64,000 bases of DNA from Flectonema sp. DT1601. Lineage: Eukaryota. The notes under the pieces were generated by a model. It did not search any database. It was not told the origin of the DNA and saw only the letters and a list, made by a program, of their open reading frames with translations. Within the stretch, counting starts at the first letter, position 1, and each line of letters opens with the position of its first letter. Positions 2,088 through 57,953 of the stretch are shown in pieces. A program made the position numbers and the translations under genes. Location: the NCBI GenBank assembly GCA_964019425.1, contig OZ025790.1, positions 558,001 to 622,000 of the forward strand, given 5' to 3'.

Positions 2088-3493
2088 ATGGATCTTTGTG
2101 AGCTGACTGCTGTCTCTCCGGTTGATGGTCGCTACCGTCGATCAACTAAAACTCTCGCTGACTACTTCTCTGAGTATGGACTTATTAAGTACAGAGTTCA
2201 TGTTGAGATTGAGTACTTCATCTTCTTGATGGCAACCATTCCACATGGAAAGGGAATTACTGATGAACACATCAAAGGTTTGAGACAACTTGTTACAGAC
2301 TTCAATGTTGAGAGTGCCACGAAGATCAAAGCAACTGAAAAGGTAACCAACCACGACATAAAGGCTGTCGAATATTATATTAAAGAAAGTTTTGACAAGT
2401 TGGGATTAGGAGAATATAAAGAATGGGTTCACTTTGCTCTGACTAGTCAGGACATCAACAACACTGCTGCTCCTTTATTGTTGAAGGATGCTATTGAAAA
2501 ATCGTACATTCCAGGTATTCAGGCTTTCGTAACAACTTTGTCAGAGTCTTTGGCCCAGTGGGATGTACCTATGCTTGCTCGTACCCACGGACAACCTGCT
2601 TCACCAACAAACATGGCAAAGGAAATGAAAGTATTCGTTGAGCGTATCAACAATCAACTGAAGCTCTTAAAGCAGATCCCTCACAGCTGTAAATTCGGTG
2701 GTGCCACTGGAAACATGAATGCTCATTTGGTCTCCTTCCCAGACCAGGACTGGAGAGCCTTCGCCAACACTTTCTGCAGTGAAAAGCTTAACTTAGAAAG
2801 ACAACAATACACTACTCAGATTGAACACTATGACAACATGGGTGCTATCTTCGATGCTATTAAAAGAATTAACACCATCCTTATAGACTTCTCTCGTGAT
2901 ATCTGGTCGTACGTCTCACTTGACTACTTCAAACAGAAGATTATCGCTGGAGAAATTGGAAGCTCTGCGATGCCTCATAAAGTGAACCCGATTGACTTTG
3001 AGAATGCTGAGGGAAATCTTGGAATGGCAAATGCAATTTTTGAGCATTTGACGAGCAAACTTCCGATTTCAAGATTACAACGTGATCTTACTGATAGTAC
3101 TGTGTTGAGAAACATTGGAGTACCTCTTGGTCATACTATGATTGCTTTCTCTTCTCTCGGTAGAGGTCTTGGAAAACTTATCTTGAATGCTGACGCTATC
3201 CACGCTGACCTTGAGAAAAACTGGGCAGTCGTAGCCGAAGCTATTCAAAACGTCCTCAGAAGGGAATCCTTCCCAAAACCATACGAAGCCCTCAAAGAGC
3301 TAACCAGAAAGAATGAACGCGTCACTGAAGATTCTATCAAGCAATTTATCGCAACTTTGGATGTTTCGGATGCTGTTAAGGGAGAGCTTCTAAAGGTTTG
3401 TTTTGTATCTTTTTATTTGAATCTGACACGGACGTGAAATTAGTTAATAAATACCAACAGATCACCCCTTTCAACTACATTGGTTACAAATAA
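2088..3493 (+). CDS. purB: Adenylosuccinate lyase; exons 2088-3395 and 3461-3493 (65-nt GT-AG intron)
   Basis: Motifs SPVDGRY, TNHDIKAVEY, LARTHGQPASPT and the lyase signature GSSAMPHKVNPIDFENAEGN. Removing intron 3396-3460 (GTTTG...AACAG) restores the conserved C-terminus ITPFNYIGYK*. Confidence 0.96.
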
Positions 3494-16814: not shown

Positions 16815-19209
16815 ATGTCCTCAGCTTTTCTTTGGATTACGGTAGTGATCTTGAGTCTGGTTGCGGAGGTGTTACCACAGACAGCTCCGGGAATAGTATT
16901 TCCCATACTAGATGCTGAATTGGGTGATCACCCTCAGATATATAGGAGTATTTGTATGATTGGTTATCTGTGGCAATACGAACAAACATTAAATGAATCG
17001 CGAATTGGAATAAAGTTTAGCTACTGTGGTGTGCCTGCAAGTGTTGATGTATTCCTCCCAACTGAATCATCGTCACCCAACCTCGTTAGAGGTATTATTG
17101 AAAACACTCTTATTGTAATGTGGGGATCACTAACTAACAATACTATTCATATTAATCAATACGATCGTTTTGCTGAAAATATCAACCCCTCTGTTGACCT
17201 TCAGGTGAATACGACTGATCTACGAAGTCCTCAAATGCTTGTAGTCGGTAGTCGGTACTACGTACTAACTTGGCAAGACGGTGAAGATTATGTTTTAAAA
17301 GGACAACTTATCAACGAAAACTTCCAACTAATCGGGGAAGAGTTCCTCATCAGCTCAACGCAACCGACGAAGAGGATGCCAGCGGAGGTGACACCGATGC
17401 CGATCGGTTTTGTCAGCACCTGGCAGCAGTTGCGGAATGGGAGTACTTCTGATTATGAGATTCTAGCAAGTCTTCACTTTGAAGATGGGAGTAGGAATGG
17501 TGAAATCTTTCGAGTCAGTCCAGATGATAACAGAAATTACACTTCTCCTCAAGTTGCGGTGTTTGTTAATATCGAAAGTATCGTATTCATTTGGAAAGTA
17601 ATGAATGATGACAACTACAGCACTTTATACGGAACTCTCTATGACACGTCTACTGGTGTTCTCCGAAACTTTCGCGTCTCAGGTACGGCAATGAACTCTG
17701 ATCATCGCGTGACTGTCTGTCAAAGGCTAAGTATGATTTACGTTGTTTGGGTAGAGAAAATAACCAACACTACGGACTCTGTTTTATTATTTAATGAATT
17801 CAGAAATGATGGTTTTAGTCCCGACTCACCACAAATGATTTCTATGAATTGGTCAACTACCGTACCTGGACATCCGAGTGTGGCTGAAAAAGATTTTGGG
17901 TTTCAAGTAGTTTGGTCAGAGACGTTCAAGAATGGTTCAAGAGCGGGGATATATTCAGAACTATACACACCACCAGAAGGAAGGCTTCCTGTCGTTCCTT
18001 CAAATAGAACGAGTCCTCCTGCGGGAATTCCAACAACAGAAATCCCAACATCGATACCAACAGAAAGTTCAAAGAAGTCATTTAGTGTTATTTCCGTGAT
18101 ATTATTTTCTTCTTTATGTCTGTTTGTCGTCGGAGTACTATTTGGGGTCTACCGCAGATGTCGCGGGAAGAGTTCTAAACTACCAACAGATGAACTAGCG
18201 ATCCAACTAAGTACATTACCACCTGAAGCTTCTGAAACACTTACAGAAACAGCATTACAACCCATTCATGAAATCGACTGGTCTTCTCTCTATGATTTCA
18301 AGGTAGTGGGTAAGGGAGCATTCGGCATCGTTAGGACAGCCTGGAGTAATGTGACTAGAGAACAGGTATGGTCAACCTTTATTATTATTGTGTACTTCAT
18401 CTCTAAAACAGTAATAAAAATAATACAAACAGATTGCCATCAAAGAGTCACACACTGATGGAGAAGATCTCGTTGAAGAAGTTCGCGTACTCTGCTCACT
18501 CCGACAGAAGAACATTTTGAATTACTACGGATGGGCAAGACATGAAGGAACCTTATACATGATTACTGAGTACTGTTCAGGTGGTTCTCTACTTCAATTC
18601 AAATGGAAAGATCGAATGACTCAATCGTTAGCAGTCACAGACATTGCAAGAGCTCTGTCTTACTTAGAGACATTAGGATTAGTACACATGGATGTTTCAG
18701 CAAGGAATGTATTAGCTATGAGTGATGGTATGTTAAAACTTAGTGATATGGGTCTTCTTACTAACAGAGGAGGGAAGACTAAATCAAAGCTTCCAATACA
18801 GTGGTGCTCTCCCACTACACTGAAAACAAAACGAGCTTACACATCCCAAGACATTTGGTCCTATGGATGTCTACTTTACGAAGTGTTGTCAGGACATGCT
18901 CCGTTTTATTTAGAAGCTCGTGATGGGCTTAAGAATGTCGCCAGGAAGATTGTCAACTGTGGACTCCCTTCAGCTCCAAGTGATTTAAATCGAGTAGAGC
19001 AATTGATTTGGGATACTGTTGTGGTTCGATGTTGGGACACAACCTCGTCACAGATATCATTCAGAGATATTTTACTTACGATGGAAAAGCTGCATTCGCA
19101 ATCAATCGAAATGGATTCTGTGTCACCTTACTTTCCAGGTATTGAATACGAGACGGTGGATGTTTATGTTAATAATGACTTTGATTGTGAGCCTCGTCTT
19201 CTGTCTTAG
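16815..19209 (+). CDS. Single-pass receptor kinase (tyrosine-kinase/TKL-like); exons 16815-18365 and 18433-19209
   Basis: Signal peptide, about 400-aa N-glycosylation-rich ectodomain, TM (VISVILFSSLCLFVVGVLFGVY) followed by RRCR, and GKGAFG. Splicing intron 18366-18432 yields IAIK, then HMDVSARN, DMG, LPIQW and DIWSYG. Confidence 0.9.
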
Positions 19210-19594
19210 CGATCTTACCCTCATTCGCAAAGTGAATTACTTTCCTTGCGAGATGCTCACGGACTCAACAGTCTACTTTTATTTAATTTGATGTTGATCA
19301 AAAGCAACCATCTACTCTTATTACTGTCGATATATTGACGTCTGGGACAACACGTCTTTGAGACTGTCTATGTCGACTAACCTACTGATGTTTACAATGT
19401 CACGAAGCGATGAACTCTTTAATTGTTTAGTCAAAGCGAAAATATTTTACTTTTTCAGACAGGTAGCATTACACAACTGTGATTGAAGCGTGATAAGACT
19501 CTCTATTTAATTACATTAGTTCAAAGTGTGATGTCTTTTATTATTATCGCAGGTCAGCTGAACATATCAACTGAACTGAACAAAAAATATAATT

Positions 19595-20810
19595 ATGTTG
19601 GTGAGCAGGTTGGTTACACTGGTAGCAGTGCTGTCGATGGTAAATGCCCAAACACCAACACCTTCACCAGGTGAGGACTCGTCGAACTTAAAATCTGTGA
19701 TCTTATTTATTGTGTTGTGTGTTCTCGTTGTTGGAGTTTTTTTAGTAATCTGTAGAAAGTGTCGAAAGAGAATAAGAAAAAAACCTCCTCAAGAGCTTGC
19801 TGTTCAATTGAAAGTTGAGAGCCCAGATCCTTCCTCTGAAATTACACTCCCAGAAATAGCACTGCAGCCGATGCATGAAATCGCATGGACCTCCCTTTCT
19901 AATTTCAGAGTAGTTGGCAGGGGTGCCTTCGGTATCGTTAAGACTGCCTGGAGTAGTGTGACTAGAGAACAGGTATGGTTACCTTTCTTGTGTGGTATTC
20001 AATGTGTCATCGCAGTAATAAAAATAATACAAACAGATTGCCATCAAAGAGTCACACGCTGATGGAGAAGATCTCGTTGAAGAAGTTCGCGTACTCTGCT
20101 CACTCCGACAGAAGAACATTTTGAATTACTACGGATGGGCAAGACATGAAGGAACCTTATACATGATTACTGAGTACTGTTCAGGTGGTTCTCTACTTCA
20201 ATTCAAATGGAAAGATCGAATGACTCAATCGTTAGCAGTCACAGACATTGCAAGAGCTCTGTCTTACTTAGAGACATTAGGATTAGTACACATGGATGTT
20301 TCAGCAAGGAATGTATTAGCTATGAGTGATGGTATGTTAAAACTTAGTGATATGGGTCTTCTTACTAACAGAGGAGGGAAGACTAAATCAAAGCTTCCAA
20401 TACAGTGGTGCTCTCCCACTACACTGAAAACAAAACGAGCGTACACATCTCAAGACATTTGGTCCTATGGATGTCTACTTTACGAAGTGTTGTCAGGACA
20501 TGCTCCGTTTTATTTAGAAGCTCGTGGTGGTCTTAATAAGGTAGCCTTCAAGATTATGAATTGTGACATGCCTTCAGCTCCAAGTGATTTAAATCAAGTA
20601 GAGCAAATGATTTGGGATACTGTTGTGGTTCGATGTTGGGACACAACCTCATCACAGATATCATTCAACAGTATATTAATAACAATGGAAAAGCTACAAA
20701 GACTTTCCACTACGGTAGTTTCTGTTTCCCCTTATGAGTTTCCAGGTATTGCTTATGAGACTTTAGACGTTAGTGAGCTATTCAGAAATGATAGTAATCC
20801 TGTCGACTGA
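19595..20810 (+). CDS. Paralogous receptor kinase with a very short ectodomain; exons 19595-19972 and 20037-20810
   Basis: Signal peptide, about 15-aa ectodomain, TM and GRGAFG. It has the same intron position (19973-20036) and a kinase core nearly identical to the upstream gene. Confidence 0.88.
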
Positions 20811-44939: not shown

Positions 44940-45021
44940 CGCAGTCGGCAGGATTTGAACCTGCGCGGGCAGAGCCCAATGGATTTCTAGTCCAACCCCG
45001 TAACCGCTTGGGTACGACTGC
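44940..45021 (-). tRNA. tRNA-Ser (anticodon AGA)
   Basis: Reverse complement GCAGTCG TACCCAAGCGGTTACGGGG TTGGA-CT-AGA-AA-TCCAT TGGGCTCTGCCCGC GCAGG-TTCAAAT-CCTGC CGACTGC G: acceptor stem, long variable arm and T-loop, followed by a TTTT terminator. Confidence 0.95.
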
Positions 45022-45054
45022 TCATAACCGCATAAACTTATTTTAAAAAGCATA

Positions 45055-45109
45055 AACGATTCTAAAGCTACTTTCTGTACTTTATTGACATACACAACAC
45101 AAAATGGCT
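45055..45109 (+). other. Genomic copy of a trans-spliced mRNA 5' end: spliced leader (45055-45087) + 5' UTR + ATG
   Basis: AACGATTCTAAAGCTACTTTCTGTACTTTATTG closely matches the euglenozoan/diplonemid SL exon (ending TTTCTGTACTTTATTG). It is followed by ACATACACAACACAAA-ATG rather than the GT donor of an SL RNA gene. Confidence 0.85.
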
Positions 45110-46961
45110 GACCCGGACTACACGGATTTGCCTATGCGGTTGGACGAAAAGTTCACAAGACGAATACCGTGCGGTATCTGGGTGTACATTACGACGAGAA
45201 GTTAACCTTTAAGTCGCAAATTCAAAAGATGATGACAGCTGCTTCCAAGGGTCTAGGCTTGTTGGTTAGACTCACTAGGATAGGCTGCAGAAAGAGGACA
45301 CTCATTAGTATACTAGTGACGGTGGTGTTAGCAAGGGTGCTTTATGGTGTTGAAAGCTTTGCTTGGATGTTACCAAAAGAGTGCTTCGAACAACTGGAAT
45401 TACTGGTAAACAGGGCAGTGAGGCTGGTAACTGGATGTCTGCGGAGCACCAAACTACAGAGACTATACAAAGAAGCCGACACGCCAAGACTGAAGGAACA
45501 CATCCAGTATAAGATGTGTAGAACTTACGAACGTTTCAAATTAAGTCCGTTCTTACCGACTCGCAAGCTGACGAGAACAGGGAGTTCAGAATTATTTCAA
45601 AAATCAAAATGGGGATGGAATGTCTGGATAGACTATGTCTCTGGTGTCCCTGGCCTTGACAATTACCGGAGCATTACCAACCTGGAAGTGAACCCAGAAC
45701 ACTACACTCTCCCTCCATGGAAAAGTACTAGTGCGATGAGATTCACATATTCAAGTAACAAGGAAGAGGCTGAACAGCGAGAAGCTGAACTACCAACTCA
45801 CGAGATGAAAGTCTACACTGACGGGTCGATAAGACACAAATCCGAGACTTACATGACAGACTCGGCTGCCGCTGTGGTCATAGTAAAAGAAAGCAAGATG
45901 CGTCTACTTGGATATAAAATACCAGTAGCGGGTTCCTCTTATAGGACCGAGCAGATTGCAGTAAAACTGGCGTTGGAAAATTTAGTTCAGGTGGCGGAGG
46001 ATGAACATGAATCTCTAACAACAACGACGCACCTGTTGACTGATTCGATGTCAGTCATGCAGGCATTGGAACAAGGGCCATATAAACAAAGGTCCCCAAT
46101 GAACAAAAAGATCTGGAAGTTGGCAATGAAACTGGAGAAGAAGGGAATCCAAGTCAACATGCAGTATGTACCGGCACACAGAAACGTGCGGTACAACGAA
46201 GTAGCGGACCAACTGGCGAAATTCGCTGCAGGCCTGAAGGAAGATCCACCTCACGAAGATGTTATTATTAAACAACTGCCCACTCAACTTGACATGGGAA
46301 CATTGATGACGTTTCACAAGCGGAGAAAACGGGAGAACTGGATCGGACCGGGAGAGGTAAGACACCCTCCGTACATCGAAGCTCTAACACGACCAGAGGA
46401 AGTACTGATGTCACGCTTTAGAGTGGGACATTGCAGAACTCTGATAATCAAAGGACTGAACGAGCTGTGCTTTTTCTGTAAACTTGGAAAGGCGACACAT
46501 CATGTATTATTTATATGCGAACATTGGTGTATAGAAACCTTGAGAGAAAAATACATCAGTCACATGATGAATGACAAGGGAGAGGAAGCATGCCAACTGG
46601 AGGACTGCTACTTACCTGCGAATCAACAGCAGATGACTGGTTTTGTCACAACCTTAGACAGACTGGCACAACTATTAGGACGGTAGTATTATTAAAACAT
46701 CGACATTTCGAATATCAACATTGAAGGCATCATTGCAACACATCTGAAGTCGTCCAAGTGGACAATTTATTCTGTAGTATTAGTTTTAAGTTATCAAAAC
46801 AAAGAAAGGAGATACGAAGCCTACGGGATTCCCACCCAACCCCCAAAACAAAGAAAGTAAGAAAGAAAGAAAGAAAAAGAACAACCGCGCCTAACAGCGC
46901 AATCAGCATCACAGACTCACGGGTCGTGATGCACTCAAAAAAAAAAAAAAAAAAAAAAAAA
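45110..46961 (+). mobile_element. 5'-truncated non-LTR retrotransposon, family A (RNase H-containing, Ingi/I-like), copy 1
   Basis: Intact ORF 45169-46686: RT C-terminus (RYLGVHYD), RNase H (VYTDGS, TEQIAV, LTDSMS, VPAH...NEVADQLA) and Cys/His motif (CFFC...HVLFIC). A 3' hairpin GCATCAC...GTGATGC precedes a 25-nt poly(A) at 46937-46961. Confidence 0.93.
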
Positions 46962-49900
46962 CTGGAAAGTATCTGATGGAATCGTTGTTATTGCTGAAAC
47001 CACCGTGAGGGCTTAACTGAAGCTGAATATAAAGGCGTATCTGATTTCGACACACAAAATTGTGATGTAAAAGCATCGTTTCAAAGAATTTTAACATCTA
47101 TAAATTACAGTGAAAAAATATTAGGGCTCTATCGTCCCGACATAAGTACACAAAAAATCAACGATAAACTTCCTGAATTTAAAACCTTCTCGATTCTTCT
47201 CAAGATAGAAGAACCAAATCTAAGACTATTTTTAAGTGCCTCCGGAAGAGGAGGGCTGTTTTTCAGACTAAGGAAAGACCACCCCATGAACCAGATCTTA
47301 AGTGTGATCTGGCTGGGGAGAATGGACCTAAAAACGTCCATATTAGCGCAGGAAAGTGTAAAGAGCACTTATGGAATAGCCCTGTGTAGGGGAAATTATG
47401 GAGTACGGGTAGAGAACGCCTGTAGGGAACAGGTACGAAAAAGTATTGGGGTGAAGTCCCTAGGATACTTCTCGGTAGAGGGTATTCCCAAGGGAGTCCC
47501 AGTGGACAAGATAATTGCGAACTTCGCAACAAAAGATATTGTGGTGAAGCCGATCAAAGTAATTGATGGCAAGTGGGTCCTCAAAATAGAGGATGACTTT
47601 CTGGGAGGAGAGAATAGAATGGTGTTGGAATGGCCAGACCATGGGGTGAAGCTTGCATGCTCCCGAACCGAAAGGCCGAAACCAAAGCTGATAACCCATA
47701 CAGCTGAAGGTGCACCACAGGCAAAGCCTGAATCAGACAAACAAGAAAAAGTGCAACAAAGTGGTATGGAGAGTAAACTTGACAAATTATTGTCGATGAA
47801 TGAGACGTATTTCAATAAAATAGAGAACATTGAAAAAAATGTCGAAATAAGCAACGTTCGTGTTGCGAAAATAGAAAATAATGTTGCAAATCAAAACAAA
47901 AACTTTGAGGCAATCCAAAAACGTTTCATGCAAATTGAAACAAAACTAGAAATACTAATGCCAGGATTAGGGCAGACAGAGATCAGTGGATCTGATGTGG
48001 ACATGTCAAACGGTGAATATGATTGGCATGCAGACCATACTCATAAAAACAACAACCCGTCCCCTCCAATAGACACCAACGTTGAGAAAAGCATAAATGT
48101 GATTAATGACAACTTGCTGGTTCAACGTGGTAATGTCCATCCCAACCCGGAACCAAATAATGAAAGAAACTATACAGACCTTAAAATAATATCAGTAAAC
48201 ACGAGGTCGATGACAACATCAATTGAACTTCTACGTCTCCTTGTTATTAACTATGAACCTGACGTGCTATTAATACAAGAGACATTTTTAACGAAAAATA
48301 AGAAAACACCCGTAATTGAAGATTATAACCCATATAGGAAAGATAGGACACTTCCAACACAAGTAGGTAAACCTATAAGAGGAGGAGGTCTACTAACCTA
48401 TGTTCATGATAAATATAAATTTAAAGAAATCGCGATCACACAAAGTGATTGTGACTTGAAATATCAGCTGTTGAAATACAATGTGATGAACCTCTAATTG
48501 CCTATAACATATATCGTCCACCCCTGCAATATAAAGATACTAGGTGCCCGAATCTTAGCCTAGATTGCATTGACTTGAAAAATAATATGAAAAATGATGT
48601 TGTCATAATGGGAGACTTTAATACACATAACCATATGTGGGAAGAGAATTCCATTGACGACATCAACGGAGAAATCGTATCTGAGTGGATTAGTGAAAAC
48701 AATCTTGTGTGTTGGAATGAGCCATCAATTCCAACAAGGTTGGAATCAAGGACCTCTCCGGACATAACCCTAACGAATACAAATATGAGAATAAAATCCT
48801 GGTCTACCCTTGGAACAGTTAACTCTGATCACTCACCAATGATGATTGTAATACAAAACTCGTGCAAAAATGCTGACTACCAAAAAGTGAAAAAATGTGG
48901 TTTCAACTGGGCCGAAGCTGATTGGACAAACTTCAGTGATGACCTTGAATTAGTCTCTGAGAGAATCCAAAATATTAAAATCAATGAAAAGAAAGCAAAA
49001 GTCTTTAAGAATGAAATATTAAAAGCAAAAAGTAAACACGTACCTAGAATCTATGTGCGTAGGCGAAAAGCGAAGAAGTGGTGGAACTCCGAACTAATGA
49101 AACAGCTTCGTCAATTTGAAGCTAAACAAAAAGAAATTACAGATGACAGCGACCTGAATGATGAAAATATAGCACTACTAAAGAAATTGAATGAAGAGAT
49201 ATGTGAAAAAGTAAAAGAATGTAGGGAACAACAAATTGAAAAAAGAGTGAAAGAATGTGTTACGGAAGATAGATCTCCGAACAAAGATGGCATTTTAAAG
49301 TACATGGATGATGTGAGAAAACTTGACGGGCGGTGTGAAAGGGTAGAAATACCATTTATACACGACCCAAATATGGAAAAAATAATCGACGATAAGGAAA
49401 AAGCTGATTTCTTTACTGATTTCTTCTCAACTATAGTAGGGAAAGATATAAATGAAAAGTACAGACATAACTTCAACATGAATATTAAAGATGACATAGT
49501 TCCGTTCACTTTCTCTGAGGTGATGACACAATTGGGAAAACTACATAGTACCAAATCTTCACCTGACGGAATGAATGCGATCCTGTTGCAAAATCTAAAA
49601 CCCAAAATGCAAAAAACATTAGTTGATATCCTAAATAACTCTTGGTTGAACATGGTAGTACCTAATGACTGGAAACAGGCTTATTGGGTACCGATTGCAA
49701 AGCCCGGAAAAGACCCCCACAATCCAGCATCTCAGAATGATAGCGCTCACCCCTGCGATCGCTAAACTTATCGAAAAATTAATAAAGAACAGGCTTGTAT
49801 ATCACTTAGAAAAACATAACAATGGTGTTAAAAACCTGAGTCATAATCAAGCTGCTTATCGTAAAACGAGATCGTGTAGGGAACAGGTTCTGTACCTAAT

Positions 49901-52727
49901 CGATATACTCAAAGAGAATAGAATAAGAGGGAAAACTTCGGCGGTTGTCTTTATGGATATAAAGAAAGCTTTTGATTCTGTCAACCACCACAAGTTACAA
50001 GAAAGAATGAGAAAGATGTCGATACCTGAAAACTATATTAGGTGGGTCGAAAGCTTTCTGCACAAAAGGACAGCTGCGACTATAATTAACAGCAGGGTAA
50101 GCAAGTACATTAAGCTCACAAATGGAGTCCCGCAGGGAACTGTCCTTGCGAGTATATTATTTGTACTCTACATTGATGAAATAACCGAAATTATAGAGAA
50201 CAAAGCAAACATGTCACTCTATGCAGATGATATTGCATTTGTAGTATCTGACGAAAATTGTGCTGGTAGGCTGTCAAAAAGAGTTCAAACTGTATTTACG
50301 AAAGCGGAAGAACACTTAAACAACATTAATCTTGAGTTGGCGAGAGATAAAACAAAAATAATGATTGTTGACTCGAGTACCTCACGGAAAAAGAAATGCC
50401 AATATAAAATTAAATTTAAAGATAAGACGTGCCTAACAGAAACTGATTCTGAGAGGTTCTTAGGTGTCCAGATTGATAATGATCTATCGTTTTCTGATCA
50501 TGTATCTCAAATATGTAAAAGTGTGAACAAGAAACTTCGCTTCCTAAAAATGCTGGCTGATAAAAGATGGGGTTGTACTAAAAATATAATCAGACTAGTC
50601 TACTTAATATACATCATACCTGTATTTACCTATGCTATCGAGAGTTTGTACAGCACCATTGTACGAAACAGAAAACTAATGCGAAAACTGAATACTCTTC
50701 ATATGAAAGCAGCTCAAATCATAACTGGTGCTGACTACGGAACAAAATTTGAGAAGGTCTTGGAAGAATCCTGCGTAGCGGATCTGAACAGCTACTATCT
50801 TGTTGAAACAGCAAGATGGGCTGCAAAGATCGAACGACTGCGTGCCTCTCCTTGTACCAAAAGATTGATGGAAAAACGAAAAATAAGATATAAACATATG
50901 CAAACATTGTGTTTTGCAATCAAAACGTATAGTGATATTGGTCTCACAGACCTACCAGTAGAACTTTATCCTCCAACTTACTTTCCTCTTTGGAAGGATT
51001 TTGATAAAATAGAAATGAACGAAAATATTGGTGCGAGAAAATGCGAAAACACGAATAGAAATCAAGATATCTGTAAAGAACTTATCAGAAAATTAGAAGA
51101 AAAATATGAAAACAACATACTTGCGACAATATATACTGACGGCTCTGTAAGTGAAGGAGTTGGAGGTGCATCATTTGTAATAAATTTTGAAGAGAAATTC
51201 CTGGAAGGTAAATTCCCGGCAGGAAAAATATGCTCCTCTTTTAGATCGGAGTTATTTGCAATATACCACGCTCTCAATACTTTACTGAAAGTAATAAAGA
51301 AAAAACCAAATAGGGAGTTGGAAGACAAGGCAATTCTAGTTCTCTCAGACTCACAGAGTGCCTTATCTGAACTAAAAAGAGGTCATTGCTACCAACGGGC
51401 TGAGCTAGGTCTTAAATGCTGGATTATCCTGGGAATACTGTGTGAACAGGGTTTGAAAGTTAATATATCTCATATTTTCTCACATTGTGGAATCGAAGGG
51501 AATGAAAGGGCAGATGCTCTTGCTGCTGAAGCAGTACATATGGAACAAGACAAAGTCAAAGTCGATTACAAAACTGTAACGACGAAAATGAAATTCTTAC
51601 ATACAAAAGTTAAAATAGGAAAGAAAGAATCATTTCCTCCGAAATTCAATAGGGAAATGGAAATATTGATCTCTCAAATAAGGATGGGAAAGGCATGCTT
51701 TACCACAAAGCAAACTGGTAATAGATATAGAAATGGATTGTGTCAATGCTGTGAAGTCGAAGACACAGTACAACACTTTGTATGTGAATGCCCTGCATTC
51801 TATAAGGAAAGAAAAACAAACTTCGAATCTCTTATACTATCGGAACAAGAGTTAGAAGGACACGTGAATGAATTCGATGGTATGAAAATACTGTTGAAAT
51901 ATATATGTGAAGTGGGAAAAGGGCTTATCCAAAGGGTGAGGCTCATAAGAAAATAAAGAAACGATGCTTTTGCCCCACTCTTTTGTGAAGGTAGATGCCT
52001 TGTGGTGCCGAAGGAAAGCAGACAGGGGAACAGATGATGAAGAGGATTCTGATGTATGAAGAAGGTGATTCTGATGTCATTTAAAAGATGAAGATTATGT
52101 AGTTACGAAAATGATGAGGATACTGCAGTAAGTTAAATGAACAGAAGAGGTCATCCTACTCCTTGAGAACAAGAAGGGTTCATTGAGAAGCCTGTCATTT
52201 TGCTGTTTAATTATGCTGATAATAACAATTATGCTGATAACATTTATTACGTAACTCTTGCTTAACATTAGACAAATCTAACTAAGTCTTTTGTTCATCT
52301 TGCTCTTCTTAACTTCCATTATGCGAAAAACTTCTTAAGCAAGAGGGAAAGCTGATTGCTGGAAGGAGGGCTGACAGTTTTAAGATGTGGAGAACACTTA
52401 TTTAGATGAAGACGTAAAGTAAATTAGATGTACTCACATGAGGATTATAAACATGTCAACAACTCAAAGAAAAAGGGTTAATCGTGTAACCCGTCAAACC
52501 ATGCTGTTGTAACTATTATGCTGATTAATTTTATTTTTACGTAACTCTTGCTGCACATTAGACTAAACTAGCTCAGTCTTCTGTTTCTCTATTGTATTCC
52601 TTTCTATTTATGAACGAACCTTTTGGGGTCAACTTACCCCGCTCATAAACAGGATATCAAGTGAACAGAGAATTAACCTTCTCTGTATCACAACAAATCC
52701 AGTATCAAAAAAAAAAAAAAAAAAAAA
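46962..52727 (+). mobile_element. Near full-length non-LTR retrotransposon, family B (ORF1-APE-RT-RNase H-Cys/His), copy 2, with at least two frameshifts
   Basis: APE (IISVNTRS, LIQET, MGDFNTH, SDHSP); RT (DIKKAFDSV, GVPQG, YADD, FLGV); RNase H (YTDGS, SDSQS, SHCGIEGNERADALA); CQCC...H...EC. A 3' hairpin (ACAGAGAA/TTCTCTGT) precedes a 21-nt poly(A) at 52707-52727. Confidence 0.95.
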
Positions 52728-55700
52728 TAACCGGAAGAACCTTTATTTATTAAAGGGACCACACAAAATGCCTTCACGCGGCGGTCTCGGAAGGCCCCAG
52801 CTGTTGCATTATTAAGAAACTCCGGAATAGGAAATGCTTATTTCCGGATCAAACCAGTGGCGGGACAGACACCCACTCAGTACACTACAGTGTGGCTGGA
52901 CCGCAAGACAACGAACGAAGAGGCAGTTGGCATACTTAAACCCAACATGACCTCTGCCATGGACTCACCATCATACATGGCAAGATTGGATTGAGGGTGG
53001 TTTACACGAAGGATGTTGACAAGGTGGGAAAGGGTGCTGGCAAATATGCATCCGCAGTGTTTGGCGAAGGGCTCCACCGTCTCAGTGGAGCACCTTACAG
53101 CTGGGGCAACAGACTCCGGAACATCCTATTGGAGATAGGACTGAAGTCGAAGTTTATAAGGATGGATAGAGGTGACTTTATCATCGCACTGGACAAGAAA
53201 CCAGAATCAAGGTTTGTACAGTGTGGTGATATTGTCATCCTCATTGAAAAGTTAGAAACAGAAGTGAAGGCGAAGGAAACAGCGAAACCCGTTGTAGTTA
53301 AGTACCGTGAGGCTAGAACATCGTACGCAGCAGCGGTCAAGAGGTCACTCCCGACAACGAAGAAACCAACGGCCGAAGTACAGGTTGTAGAAAACAACGT
53401 CAACAGCCTGAGAGAGAAAACGAACGAGACTATCGAACGTCTCCAGAAAGAAGTGAAGGACATGCAAGCTCGACTTGATGAAGGCATGGCACAGATAACC
53501 GGGATTGTAGAAACCCTGGTGCAAACTACGAAAAAGAACGAAGCAGCCAACAACAACATGGCGACAGCCATCACTTCGCTAATAGAAGCTGTCAAGAGGA
53601 TTGAGAACAATGGTATGAACAAGATTACTACAAGTGCGACCAACAGGAACAACACTGGCCAATCATGATTGTGATTTGGTCAAATAACATTCGCTCAGTT
53701 CTGAAACCAGAAAATTACTTTCGATTGAACTGGGCACTGAAAGAAGAAAAGCCTGAAGTAGTACTACTGCAGGAAACGTGGTTATCAAAAGAAAAACACT
53801 TCGCTATTGAAGGATATTCAATCCACAGGAGAGACAGCACCATCAAGTCAGGTCATCGAGGACTCGTCACTCTGGTCAGAAATGATTTAAATAAGTTAAT
53901 ATTAAAACACCCCGACATCTCACATGACCAAACTGAGATATTAACAGTAGTACTTCAATCTAATCCGCCATTGACAATTCACAATGTCTACCACTCGCCT
54001 GAAATCAAGGCAACAACATGGAAGTTCAAAACAGAGCCCGGCACATTGATTGCGGGTGACATTAATGGACACCATTCAACTTGGTCAATGGTAATACAAA
54101 CACCACTGGTAACAGCTTCTACAATTGGTCACTAGAAGCAACAATTCGAGTACTAAATAAACCTCAACAACAGAATTAAGAATGTGCAGAAACTTGCTAA
54201 TAGGATCAACAACGAGATTCTGAGAGCAGCGAGTAGGGCCATCCCAGGCTACAACAAAGAAGTCAAGTAGTACCTTCGCTGTGAGGGGTTCAGAATTGGA
54301 AGATTTAATGGCAGAGACTGACCCTGATAAGGCAGACTCAGAAGCAATTGAAAGAGGTATCAACATGATCAAACAGAAGACCATTGAGTGCGACATGACT
54401 GGAATGGACTACCGATGGGCCTTTAGAAAAGTTAAACAACTGGAAGGTAGAATGATGGACCATTCAATTACTAAGATTGTCGACGGTGAGAAGGAATTAA
54501 CTGACCTGCGGGAGGTGGCAGATGTCTTCACCAAAACGTACGCAGACCAATTCAAATTCGAAGACGGTGAACCAACCTTACAAGGAATACCTGATGACAA
54601 CTCGGTGGAATTTGGAATGCCTGAACTGGAACGACAAATTTCAAAAACAAAGGAGAAGAAGGCACCTGACCACATCTGGACCTGACCACATCTGGAACTC
54701 GATGTTAAAACAACTTCCATACCAGCCTCACTGCCCTGCTTACCAGTAATTCCAGTTGTTCGAAGCACTCTTTTGGTAGCATCCAAGCAAAGCTCTCAAC
54801 ACCATAAATCACCCTTGCTAACACCAGTATACTGATGAGTGTCCTCCTTCTGCAGCCTATCCTGGTGAGTCTAACCAACAAGCCTAGACCCTTGGAAGCA
54901 GCTGTCATCATCTTTTGTATTTGCGACTTAAAGGTTAACTTCTCGTCATAATGTACACCCAGGTACCGCACGGTATTCGTCTTGTGAACTTTTCGTCCAA
55001 CCGCATAGGCAAATCCGTGTAATCCAGGTCCCACTCTTTCCAGCATCTTATCTATTTCTGCCTTGTTGTGGGCTTTCTTCAGTTGTGAGTGGCACTTGGC
55101 CTCACGTGAAGCCAGGGTTCTTATTGATTTTGATGTGTGAGTCAAGTGCCCACCTTTCAAATATTTTGACGCGTTGTTAACCAAAAAAAAAAAAAAAGAC
55201 AGTCGGTTCACCAAATCAAAGTTTATGAAGATAGAGAATAACTGGGGTCCCAGCACGCTTCCTTGTGGTACTCCTACTCGAATGTTCCGGAATGCTCCCT
55301 TCACTCCATTCACCCTTGTTGAAATCTTCCTGCTAGTCAAGTAGTTTTGAACCCACGTAGATATTTCGTATTTTGGACATCTTATTCAGAAGAGTTACCG
55401 GAAGGGTTGAACTGCATCGAAGGCTTTTGTAGGTCGAAGGTGATTAATATCGCTTCTTCTCCCATTGCCTTGGCTCTTTTGAGTCTGTCTGTAACTATAC
55501 TGAGATTTTAAATGGAATCCCGTCCTCGTTTGTAGGCTGCTTGCCTCGGATTCATTCTGTCTTTCAACAGATGGTGCATCCGTTCTACGACCATTCTTTC
55601 AAAGAGCTTCGAGATGGTCGAGGTCGAAGGTCGAGGTTAGTGCTATCGGTCTGTACGATAAGACTTGTTTCTTGTCTTTATCAGGTTTCAGTATGGGTAT

Positions 55701-57953
55701 TACCATTCCACTTTTCCAGCACCTGGGTACTGCTGTTGCCATGGGGGGTTGAATAGTCTTAGTAGTTGCTCGAGGCTGGTAACTGGATGTCTGCGGAGCA
55801 CCAAACTACAGGGACCTTACAAAGAAGCCGGCACGCTAAGGCTGAAGGAACACATCCAGTATAATGTGTAGAACTTATGAACGTTTTAAATTGAGTCCGT
55901 CCCTACCGACTCGCAAGCTGACGGGAACAGGGGGTTCAGAATTATTTCAAAAATCGAAATGGGGATGGAATGTCTGGATAGACTATGTCTCTGGCCTTGA
56001 CAATTACCGGGGCATTACCAACCTGGAAGTGAACCCAGAACACTACACTGTCCCTCCATGGGAAAGTACTAATGCGATGAAATTCACATATTCAAGCAAC
56101 AAGGAAGAGGCTGAACAGCGAGAAACTGAACTACCAGCTCACGAGACTTACATGACAGACTCGGCTGCCGCTGTGGTCATGGTTAACGGAAGCAAGATGC
56201 GTCTACTTGGGTATAAAATACCAGTAGCCTCTTATAGGGCCGAGCAGATTGCAGTAAAACTGGCGTTGGGAAATTTAGTTCAGGTGGCAGGGGATGAACA
56301 TGAATCCCTAACAGCAACGACGCACCTGTTGACTGATTCGATGTCAGTCATGCAGGCATTGGGGCAAGGGCCATATAAACAAAGGTCCCCAAAGTTGGCA
56401 ATGAAACTGGGGAAGAAGGGAATCCAAGTCCCGGCACACAGAAACGTGCGGTACAACGAAGTAGCGGACCAACTGGCGAAATTCGCTGCAGGCCTGAAGG
56501 AAGATCCACCTCACGAAGATGTTATTATTAAACAACTGCCCACTCAACTTGACATGGGAACATTGATGACGTTCCACAAGCAGGGAAAACGGGAGAACTG
56601 GATCGGATATCAACATTGAAGGTCAAACCCACGAGGGTGACCCAATGAGCGGGGGCGACCGTAAACGCCATTTTTCCGGGAAGGGAGCTGGGGGAAAGAG
56701 GGGATATTGAATGGAGGGAAAACCACGCGATGTGTGGGGGCCTGTTCCGGAAGGCAAAAAGCGGATCGGAAGACCGCCGAAAAAATCACTTGCCGAACCT
56801 AGGGAAACCTGGAACTCGAGAATCAGTGCACTCTGCGTCATACCGAAAAGTACACCTGGGCAATTACATTTCATCCTAAATAGCTACCTCGTTACCGCCA
56901 TGCAGGCTACCGTCTTACGAAACGATAGGAAACCTTGCTACCACGTAGGTACGCTTGCAAGCTGACTTCGCATCGTATTTCTTTCAATTCCCGATTACTG
57001 AAAGAATTAGGCCATTGTTCTCCTTTCGAGTAGGCAAGAAGATCTACCGGATGACACGTCCCCTGAAGAAGCCCTTGCTGACCTTTATTTGTATTAACAG
57101 CCCGGGTTAATTGTTTTCCCCATAACTTGTGAATTTCAATAGGTAGGTTATTTCTCTGTCACAAGCCTGTTTGCATCAAGCGGCGCTCTCTAGACTAACG
57201 TCACTTCTTTGGAAGCAAGGCAAACCTTCATAGAGCTCTCTTGGAGAAGTTTGGGCCAACAAACCTGTAAACCTGCAAAGTCGGATCGAGTCAATGAAGT
57301 GGTACGAACCTTTGGGGAATGGGCATTACATTCATGTGAAGCCGAACGGAACAAGCAGCCCTGTGTACTCGTACTAGCATACTTTTCAATTTGTTGTGGC
57401 CACAGCAGAACTTGTGAAAGACAACAGTAAAAAAGAAGGAAGACTATGCTGTCACTCACTTTTACGTGGTGCCGCCACATAGAATAAAGACAAAGCTGCC
57501 GAACAAACCAACAACAATAAAAACACTAAAGATGGATGCTCAGCGCTTCCCCCCAACTAAAGAAAGTTCACAATCGAGGGGGGATAGATAAGATGCTGGA
57601 AACAGTGAGTGGGGCCAGGACACCGCACTTGCAACTGGACGTAAAGTACATAAGATGAAAGTTGCAAGGTACTGGGGCACGTCTCAAAATTCCATTTAGG
57701 TAATTTGCCACCGAAACTGAGCACCTGGTGCCGGTGTCCCGTCGAATCGAAACGGCCCGGTACAACCTCTACGCAGAAGTAATCTGCACCACAGTGTAGA
57801 TTCTTCTAAGTGATCTCAGGCTTTAAGTCATCAAAACAAAGATACGAAGCCTAGGGTCCCCACCCCCAAAACAAAGAAAGTAAGAAAGAAAGAAAAAGAA
57901 CAACCGCCTAACAGCGCAATCAGCTCACAGGTCGTGGTGCACAAAAAAAAAAA
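52728..57953 (+). mobile_element. Decayed full-length family A non-LTR retrotransposon, copy 3 (internal inversion and insertion)
   Basis: ORF1 remnant (52991-53668) overlaps the APE start via ATGA. APE motifs (WSNNIRS, LLQETW, AGDINGH); the RT core is inverted (GVPQGSVLGP on the - strand); 55772-56606 is homologous to copy 1; the 3' UTR and 11-nt poly(A) (57831-57953) match copy 1. Confidence 0.9.

Follow-up and report, generated by a model that had tools for sequence, protein, structure and literature searches.

Here we report that a 33-nt DNA copy of a spliced leader (SL) exon stands at the head of a LINE retrotransposon in the window, as we call the whole 64,000-nt stretch of DNA that was analysed. 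Together with the short 5' UTR and the three codons for Met-Ala-Asp (MAD) behind it, this copy very probably forms the 5' end of a full-length element, LINE2. The RNA of LINE2 itself was likely trans-spliced and copied back into DNA, and a second element, LINE1, is then likely to have interrupted the copy behind codon 3. The SL is identifiable and lacks its donor site, the first open reading frame (ORF1) of LINE2 continues on the far side of LINE1, the domains of LINE2 follow one another in order, and the elements end in poly(A) tails. A full-length, recently intact LINE that begins with an SL would indicate that spliced LINE RNA can template retrotransposition in this lineage. The features of the locus are as follows.

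44940..45021, minus strand: tRNA-Ser(AGA) gene (ARAGORN; Rfam RF00005, 54.7 bits), head-to-head with the LINE stack
45052..45055, plus strand: candidate left target-site duplication of LINE2, 4 nt, repeated at 52727-52730 with its first A shared with the tail; weak
45055..45087, plus strand: DNA copy of the SL exon, 33 nt, SL positions +5 to +39 (from +6 if 45055 belongs to the duplication), with AG at +22/+23 missing and no GT behind it
45088..45103, plus strand: 5' UTR of LINE2 ORF1, 16 nt, AC-rich, directly before the ORF1 start
45104..45112, plus strand: codons 1-3 (M-A-D) of LINE2 ORF1, of which 45110-45112 also fit LINE1 (microhomology)
45110..46961, plus strand: LINE1, 5'-truncated and of the other family, with the end of the RT region, RNase H, 3' UTR and poly(A) at 46937-46961; inside LINE2 after codon 3
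46962..52727, plus strand: LINE2 body, with ORF1 from codon 4 (46963), APE endonuclease, RT, RNase H, C-terminal Cys/His motif, 3' UTR and poly(A) at 52707-52727
52728..52797, plus strand: spacer of 70 nt outside the LINE1/LINE3 family, possibly a continuation of the target site
52798..57953, plus strand: LINE3, an older, rearranged copy of the LINE1 family with an inverted middle part and poly(A) at 57943-57953

Apart from a 2-nt AG deletion, the SL copy is identical to the exons of SL genes. The 39-nt SL exon of locus L005, an SL gene, agrees with the window over +5 to +39 save for AG at +22/+23, and the two have an exact 17-nt word in common; elsewhere the window shares no exact word longer than 10 nt with this exon, 30 mononucleotide shuffles gave no more than 13 nt, and the 3' 16-mer of the SL copy has a single exact occurrence in the window. 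Contigs from three of the four sequencing runs that were compared first (X1, X2 and X4) carry 4 extra bases at the 5' side, AG inserted behind 45071 and a GT donor behind 45087, and by this combination of SL exon and donor they are classed as SL RNA genes. The copy in the window terminates exactly at the exon end, where the SL gene contigs go on with GT and the window does not, and it differs from the real SL RNA genes (X1, X2, X4 and L005) in that +1 to +4 (or +5), AG at +22/+23 and the trailing GT are all missing. A preliminary description of this DNA, made from the letters alone, had laid out the region as an SL-like 33-mer, an AC-rich 5' UTR and ATG GCT GAC, and had read the 33-mer as a DNA trace of trans-splicing distinct from an SL gene. 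The layout is borne out, with the AC-rich stretch of 16 nt at 45088-45103 and ATG GCT GAC at 45104-45112, the missing donor site and the 17-nt word shared with L005 agree with an exon copy, and the window has neither GT, nor SL +1 to +4, nor the upstream sequence of an SL gene at this place. An Rfam scan of the window gave no SL match, the exact SL variant was not found in our literature search, and a search for its 5' end led only to a review table. One euglenozoan SL type used for comparison is presumably the Diplonema type. In the available part of the review that tabulates it, this type differs from the present exon at 2 positions (PMC3795323).

The preliminary description had also held that the SL identifies the host lineage, which stands for Euglenozoa and not for the species: in metagenomes the same SL exon heads SL genes with several different introns, so the exon does not fix the species. 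The adenylosuccinate lyase gene of the window, whose closest matches are at 75-77%, contains a 65-nt GT-AG intron (3396-3460), and kinetoplastid genomes have very few introns according to the accessible part of a recent preprint (bioRxiv 10.64898/2026.09.29.755400); a diplonemid therefore fits better than a kinetoplastid, and the host is likely a diplonemid. Essentially all mRNAs of D. papillatum are trans-spliced, as stated in the available text of its genome report (PMC10161547). The contigs of sequencing runs X1-X5, which are low-depth mixtures, hold the LINE1/LINE3 family and SL genes at low depth and contain neither the unique flank nor the LINE2 5' end. The SL gene and the LINE1 family of those runs are likely from one organism, and since sequences of the LINE1 family, mostly with 95-100% identity, occur in these runs, the SL gene found there likely belongs to the same species or a close one. 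Elsewhere in the window, a kinase exon region is tandemly duplicated at 18231-20761, with 89% identity over 931 nt.

The reading frame that begins with the MAD codons was traced by comparison of proteins, with one LINE2 copy read as DNA and the other copies compared as proteins. A search with LINE2 ORF1 gave 3 matches among 2773 candidates, the best of which, P0001, is 99% identical and starts MADWKVSDGIVVIAETTVRA. The codons from 46963, one base past the LINE1 tail, correspond to residues 4-20 of P0001 (17/17 identical), and the MAD frame left of LINE1 resumes right behind the LINE1 poly(A) as LINE2 ORF1. The ORF1 relatives fall into groups of 5, 8 and 1 members, the second main cluster being a sister of that of P0001 with 64% identity. 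Eight of the 13 members of the two main clusters begin with MADW; the others have MADW behind an 11-residue extension (1/13), a later start (3/13) or a different N-terminus (1/13). With MAD on the left of LINE1 and residues 4-20 of P0001 on the right of its tail, the 'MAD protein' is, by alignment, LINE2's own ORF1 and not a host gene.

This result bears on both origins put forward in the preliminary description. Its favoured one, a template switch of the RT onto a trans-spliced host mRNA for a 'MAD...' protein, is not supported, because the MAD codons are the start of LINE2 ORF1, as in the MADW proteins (8/13), and make no switch onto a host mRNA necessary. Its alternative, that the element's own RNA is trans-spliced, is likely for the downstream LINE2 and does not hold for the truncated LINE joined at 45110, to which it had been applied. 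Two further candidates were set aside: calmodulin or another host MAD protein as donor was made unnecessary by the start of P0001, and an ORF split by a 3-nt duplication together with another frame was dropped when P0001 revealed the true frame. The UTR of 16 nt is at the short end of what is seen behind this leader, since among the cDNA-like SL matches of the metagenomes for which the distance to the first ATG was measured (n = 96) the median is 40 nt, and only 4 of the 96 have 16 nt or less.

The sequence from 45110 onward is internal LINE sequence, and the LINE frame that opens at 45112 is not that of the ATG, both as first described. LINE1 is homologous from 45110 onward to the inverted part of LINE3, where it aligns with 55030-54720 at 93.4% identity over 320 nt. 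A diverged third fragment near 57586 and the inverted copy share, by eye, sequence upstream of the point equivalent to 45110, so the break is in the copy at 45110. LINE1 and the ORF2 of LINE2 have about 24% protein identity, by which the two are assigned to different families. The insertion of LINE1 duplicated at most 2 nt of its target, and 45110-45112 fit both elements. Farther downstream, a contig of the LINE1 family from run X1 departs from the window sequence at 52798. Small deletions occur within the stack, with 3 nt missing from LINE1 at 46495 and 3 nt from LINE3 at 53610, and since they are common there the loss of AG from the SL copy needs no special cause. Joins of the same kind are seen in the relatives: in P0006 the odd N-terminus is a translation of LINE1-type 3' UTR and tail sequence (E 8e-8), and in P0012 the extension is made up of a lysine run and, before it, 3 residues that fit the LINE1 3' end (weak), which suggests from the proteins that LINE1-type tails adjoin LINE2-type 5' regions at other loci too, weakly so for P0012. 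An A15 run at 55183-55197 lies within the inverted segment of LINE3, at the place from which the RT catalytic motif is absent; it is possibly a further small insertion or a deletion join.

U6/L1-type chimeric retrocopies carry a short cellular RNA sequence 5' of LINE sequence. The present arrangement is unlike them, because its 5' part is the head of a LINE that resumes beyond the element abutting it, and the join at 45110 is that of a nested insertion. A caution follows for other genomes, namely that apparent SL-LINE 'chimeras' can be nested insertions.

The layout of LINE2, with ORF1, APE, RT, RNase H and a poly(A) tail, is that by which an APE-type LINE with RNase H is recognized, and its architecture is one that we take to be I-group-like. 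ORF1 leads directly into the APE-RT-RNase H ORF2, and an intact 1250-aa protein with these three domains shares 98% identity with it. Compared with its intact relatives, the window copy has three frameshifts (near 47013, 48455 and 49732), and on this comparison it is judged dead. More distant ORF2 relatives with 56-60% identity, P0017 and P0018, come from transcriptome assemblies, and this origin implies transcription of the LINE2 lineage in related species. At the place of the ORF1 stop of the P0001 cluster (about 48021-48030 in the window), the window copy and P0003 have a sense codon, so that ORF1 runs on into the APE domain there. Between ORF1 and the APE domain, at 48129-48155, lies a degenerate motif that we liken to 2A; P0018 has a better-looking 2A-like motif than the window copy. 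The predicted structure of LINE2 ORF1 (pLDDT 45.6) was too poor for use, and its matches of 0.82-0.85 in the ESM Atlas, one cluster of which has RRM_1, serve as leads only. When ORF1 was aligned to metagenome contigs, none of 104 pattern matches was confirmed, and ORF1 was likewise unmatched in 122 SL-bearing metagenome loci. Of 8 query proteins run against these 122 loci, matches were obtained for the ORF2 type only and in a single locus, L059.

LINE2 lies close to the tRNA-Ser gene, whose 5' end is 34-35 nt from the SL copy. Three plus-strand LINEs of two families direct their 5' ends toward the 5' end of this gene at distances of about 35, 90 and 102 nt, where the values of about 90 and 102 nt are those of the two LINE1-family insertions after subtraction of later insertions. 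For TRE5-A of Dictyostelium, the available part of PMC5391098 gives an insertion window of 23-181 bp from the tRNA gene. The stack described here resembles TRE5-A in that LINEs accumulate upstream of a tRNA gene with their 5' ends facing it and at distances inside the 23-181 bp window; it differs from the system as presented in that text in comprising one locus and two unrelated families (PMC5391098). Moreover, TREs are typically arranged in tandem without inserting into each other, according to the same text, whereas LINE1 lies within LINE2 here (PMC5391098). Like LINE stacks at other loci are hinted at by P0006 and P0012. As for the candidate duplication at the ends of LINE2, it was sought after the fact, and a flank match of at least 4 nt is found in 3% of 13,915 random flanks.

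From these data, the following course of events is proposed. A source LINE2 would have been transcribed, and the SL added to its RNA at an acceptor 16 nt before the ORF1 start, as to any mRNA of the cell. The LINE2 RT would then have copied this RNA from the poly(A) to SL +5/+6, short of the first four or five cap-proximal bases. On mature cap 4 RNA the RT would be expected to stop at +5. In trypanosomes cap 4 consists of four methylated nucleotides on a 39-nt SL, according to the available part of PMC4783070. The copy would have been inserted about 34 nt upstream of the tRNA-Ser gene and would later have received LINE1, whose 5' end was presumably joined at the 3-nt microhomology; small deletions, that of AG in the SL among them, and frameshifts would finally have killed it. 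We also consider, more tentatively, a broader possibility that we hold to be rather doubtful, namely that the LINE2 family has no internal promoter and uses trans-splicing as its normal route to a 5' end, so that its full-length copies would be SL-headed genome-wide and land just upstream of tRNA genes, with later arrivals stacking into their heads. If true, such family-wide trans-splicing would be the opposite of the self-promoting L1Tc/ingi elements, and each copy would mark an RT stop on the diplonemid cap.

A single capture of the SL long ago, after which the leader was inherited as a DNA part of the LINE2 5' end, with outside promoters and no new trans-splicing, is improbable although not without arguments. 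A spliced copy has no acceptor, and its daughters could only keep the SL or splice at an AG within it; also, the 2-nt deletion is absent from SL genes and cDNAs (0/135) and could be a family trait. The copy is otherwise identical to SL gene exons, however, tandem SL relics are absent, and other small private deletions are frequent in the stack, all of which argue against such inheritance. Less probable still is a template switch of the LINE2 or LINE1 RT onto an SL-capped host mRNA. In the form that invokes a host 'MAD' gene it is removed by the MAD codons being LINE2's own start. A weaker form, in which the SL and UTR alone come from the host and the switch takes place just before the ORF1 ATG, can appeal to the resemblance of the 16-nt UTR to AC-rich leaders of host genes in the window and to the fact that this UTR is known from one copy, but it requires the switch to fall only a few bases from the ORF1 ATG, without an evident reason.

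An assembly chimera, in which a cDNA contaminant or an SL array was joined to genomic repeats, is less probable again. No read or contig bridges the joins; in particular, no X1-X5 contig bridges the SL-UTR or UTR-LINE2 join or shows an empty site, the flank being uncovered in those runs. Such an artefact would nonetheless not place three codons and their exact continuation on either side of a 1.85-kb element that ends in poly(A), nor would it delete 2 nt from the SL, and joins of a LINE1 tail to LINE2 ORF1 similar to the present one are found at P0006 and P0012. The least probable explanation is insertion of a LINE at the exon end of an SL RNA gene, in the manner of SLACS/CZAR/CRE and NeSL, for although retrotransposons that target SL genes are known in Euglenozoa (available part of PMC3636483) and SLACS-like RTs are annotated in Diplonema papillatum (available part of PMC10161547), neither SL +1 to +4 nor the sequence upstream of the SL genes of X1, X2 and X4 is present in the window, a GT intron start follows none of the three poly(A) tails, and the LINE2 endonuclease is of the APE type before the RT and not restriction-like behind it.

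The SLACS/CZAR/CRE and NeSL elements have a single ORF and a restriction-like endonuclease and insert into SL genes, as the available parts of two sources describe them (PMC3636483, PMC4640811). LINE2 shares with them, as there described, the position of a non-LTR retrotransposon adjoining SL exon sequence, and it is distinguished by an ORF1 followed by APE-RT-RNase H and by an SL without the upstream sequence or the intron of the gene (PMC3636483, PMC4640811). SL-tagged retrocopies have been described in dinoflagellates, where DinoSL occurs in 'recycled' cDNAs, according to the available parts of PMC6050394 and PMC3942190. The LINE2 head resembles these SL-relict retrocopies in having the trans-spliced leader as DNA before a start codon, which marks it as a copy of mature RNA (PMC6050394, PMC3942190). 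It differs from the relicts, to the extent that the same texts cover them, because the copied RNA is that of an autonomous APE-type LINE and not of a host gene, the SL is the 39-nt leader of a euglenozoan, and there are no tandem relics here (PMC6050394, PMC3942190).

LINE2 may be a source of the RT activity behind SL-tagged retrocopies in Euglenozoa, a role for which it is plausible. Within that group, the L1Tc and ingi elements have the domain order APE, RT, RNase H. LINE2 resembles them as a euglenozoan LINE with APE, RT and RNase H and with a degenerate 2A-like motif before the APE domain. The RNAs of the trypanosomatid elements L1Tc, ingi and RIME are reported to be unspliced and to rely on the internal promoter Pr77, which is regarded as a general trait that preserves their full length, and the loss of everything upstream of the acceptor is the reason given for their staying unspliced, all according to the available part of PMC1874656. 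In comparison with L1Tc/ingi as portrayed there, LINE2 has a separate ORF1 and begins with an SL, and the copy in the window would represent the opposite of those unspliced elements (PMC1874656). Judged from the 5' layout, an SL that lies 16 nt before the ATG leaves no room for a Pr77-like 5' module in this copy, and the 7 Rfam matches (E up to 1) obtained for the window include no ribozyme family. The question raised is whether SL-headed copies are dead ends or go back into the cycle, and if so via which acceptor. No description of an SL-headed LINE in a diplonemid was found among the papers listed in our literature searches, the scope of which lay outside Repbase, subscription papers and the large supplement of PMC10161547.

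Further copies of the leader were collected by a scan of 25 of the 64 parts of a metagenome collection, which yielded 135 SL pattern matches in 122 analysed loci out of a reported 123. AG at +22/+23 is present in all 135. They were sorted into 25 flanked matches with GT, 75 contig ends, 26 concatemers, 4 full-length matches without GT and 5 partial matches without GT. Three flanked copies (L057, L075 and L077) begin at SL +6 and four others at +1, so that a stop at +6 would not be universal, or those four arose differently. L077 could be a variant SL gene, since it ends 2 nt past the match. Among the cDNA concatemers 19 of the 26 begin at +6, a value with a PCR primer as a possible cause and not counted as support.

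In L057, L075 and L059, a flanked SL copy without GT precedes a short UTR and an ORF for which Pfam gave no match; in L059 it lies about 800 nt behind an RT-RNase H LINE ORF. By this arrangement the three are candidate SL-headed retrocopies. L050 (19-4043) has a partial SL without GT, then an inverted repeat region and a 1187-codon frame with an RT domain, its SL being of another type and about 440 nt from the RT-domain ORF. The RT motifs of this frame look CRE/R2-like to us. L050 may be a second SL-headed retroelement, or it could be the remnant of a targeted SL gene.

A different setting is found in L049, L053, L094 and L102, where the full 39-nt SL from +1 stands without GT in AT-rich DNA, some 15-25 nt downstream of an A-rich motif common to these loci; L113 is alike but has GT behind. 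The GC content of the four loci is 28-31% upstream and 41-61% downstream of the SL, and the genes near it include those for a photolyase-related protein, an HNH nuclease and an ankyrin protein. This gene content suggests large DNA viruses of protists with a host SL in their DNA, or else SL-capped inserts; our literature search found nothing on a host SL in the DNA of large protist viruses. Finally, in L066 an SL RNA gene lies directly behind a cluster of eight tRNA genes.
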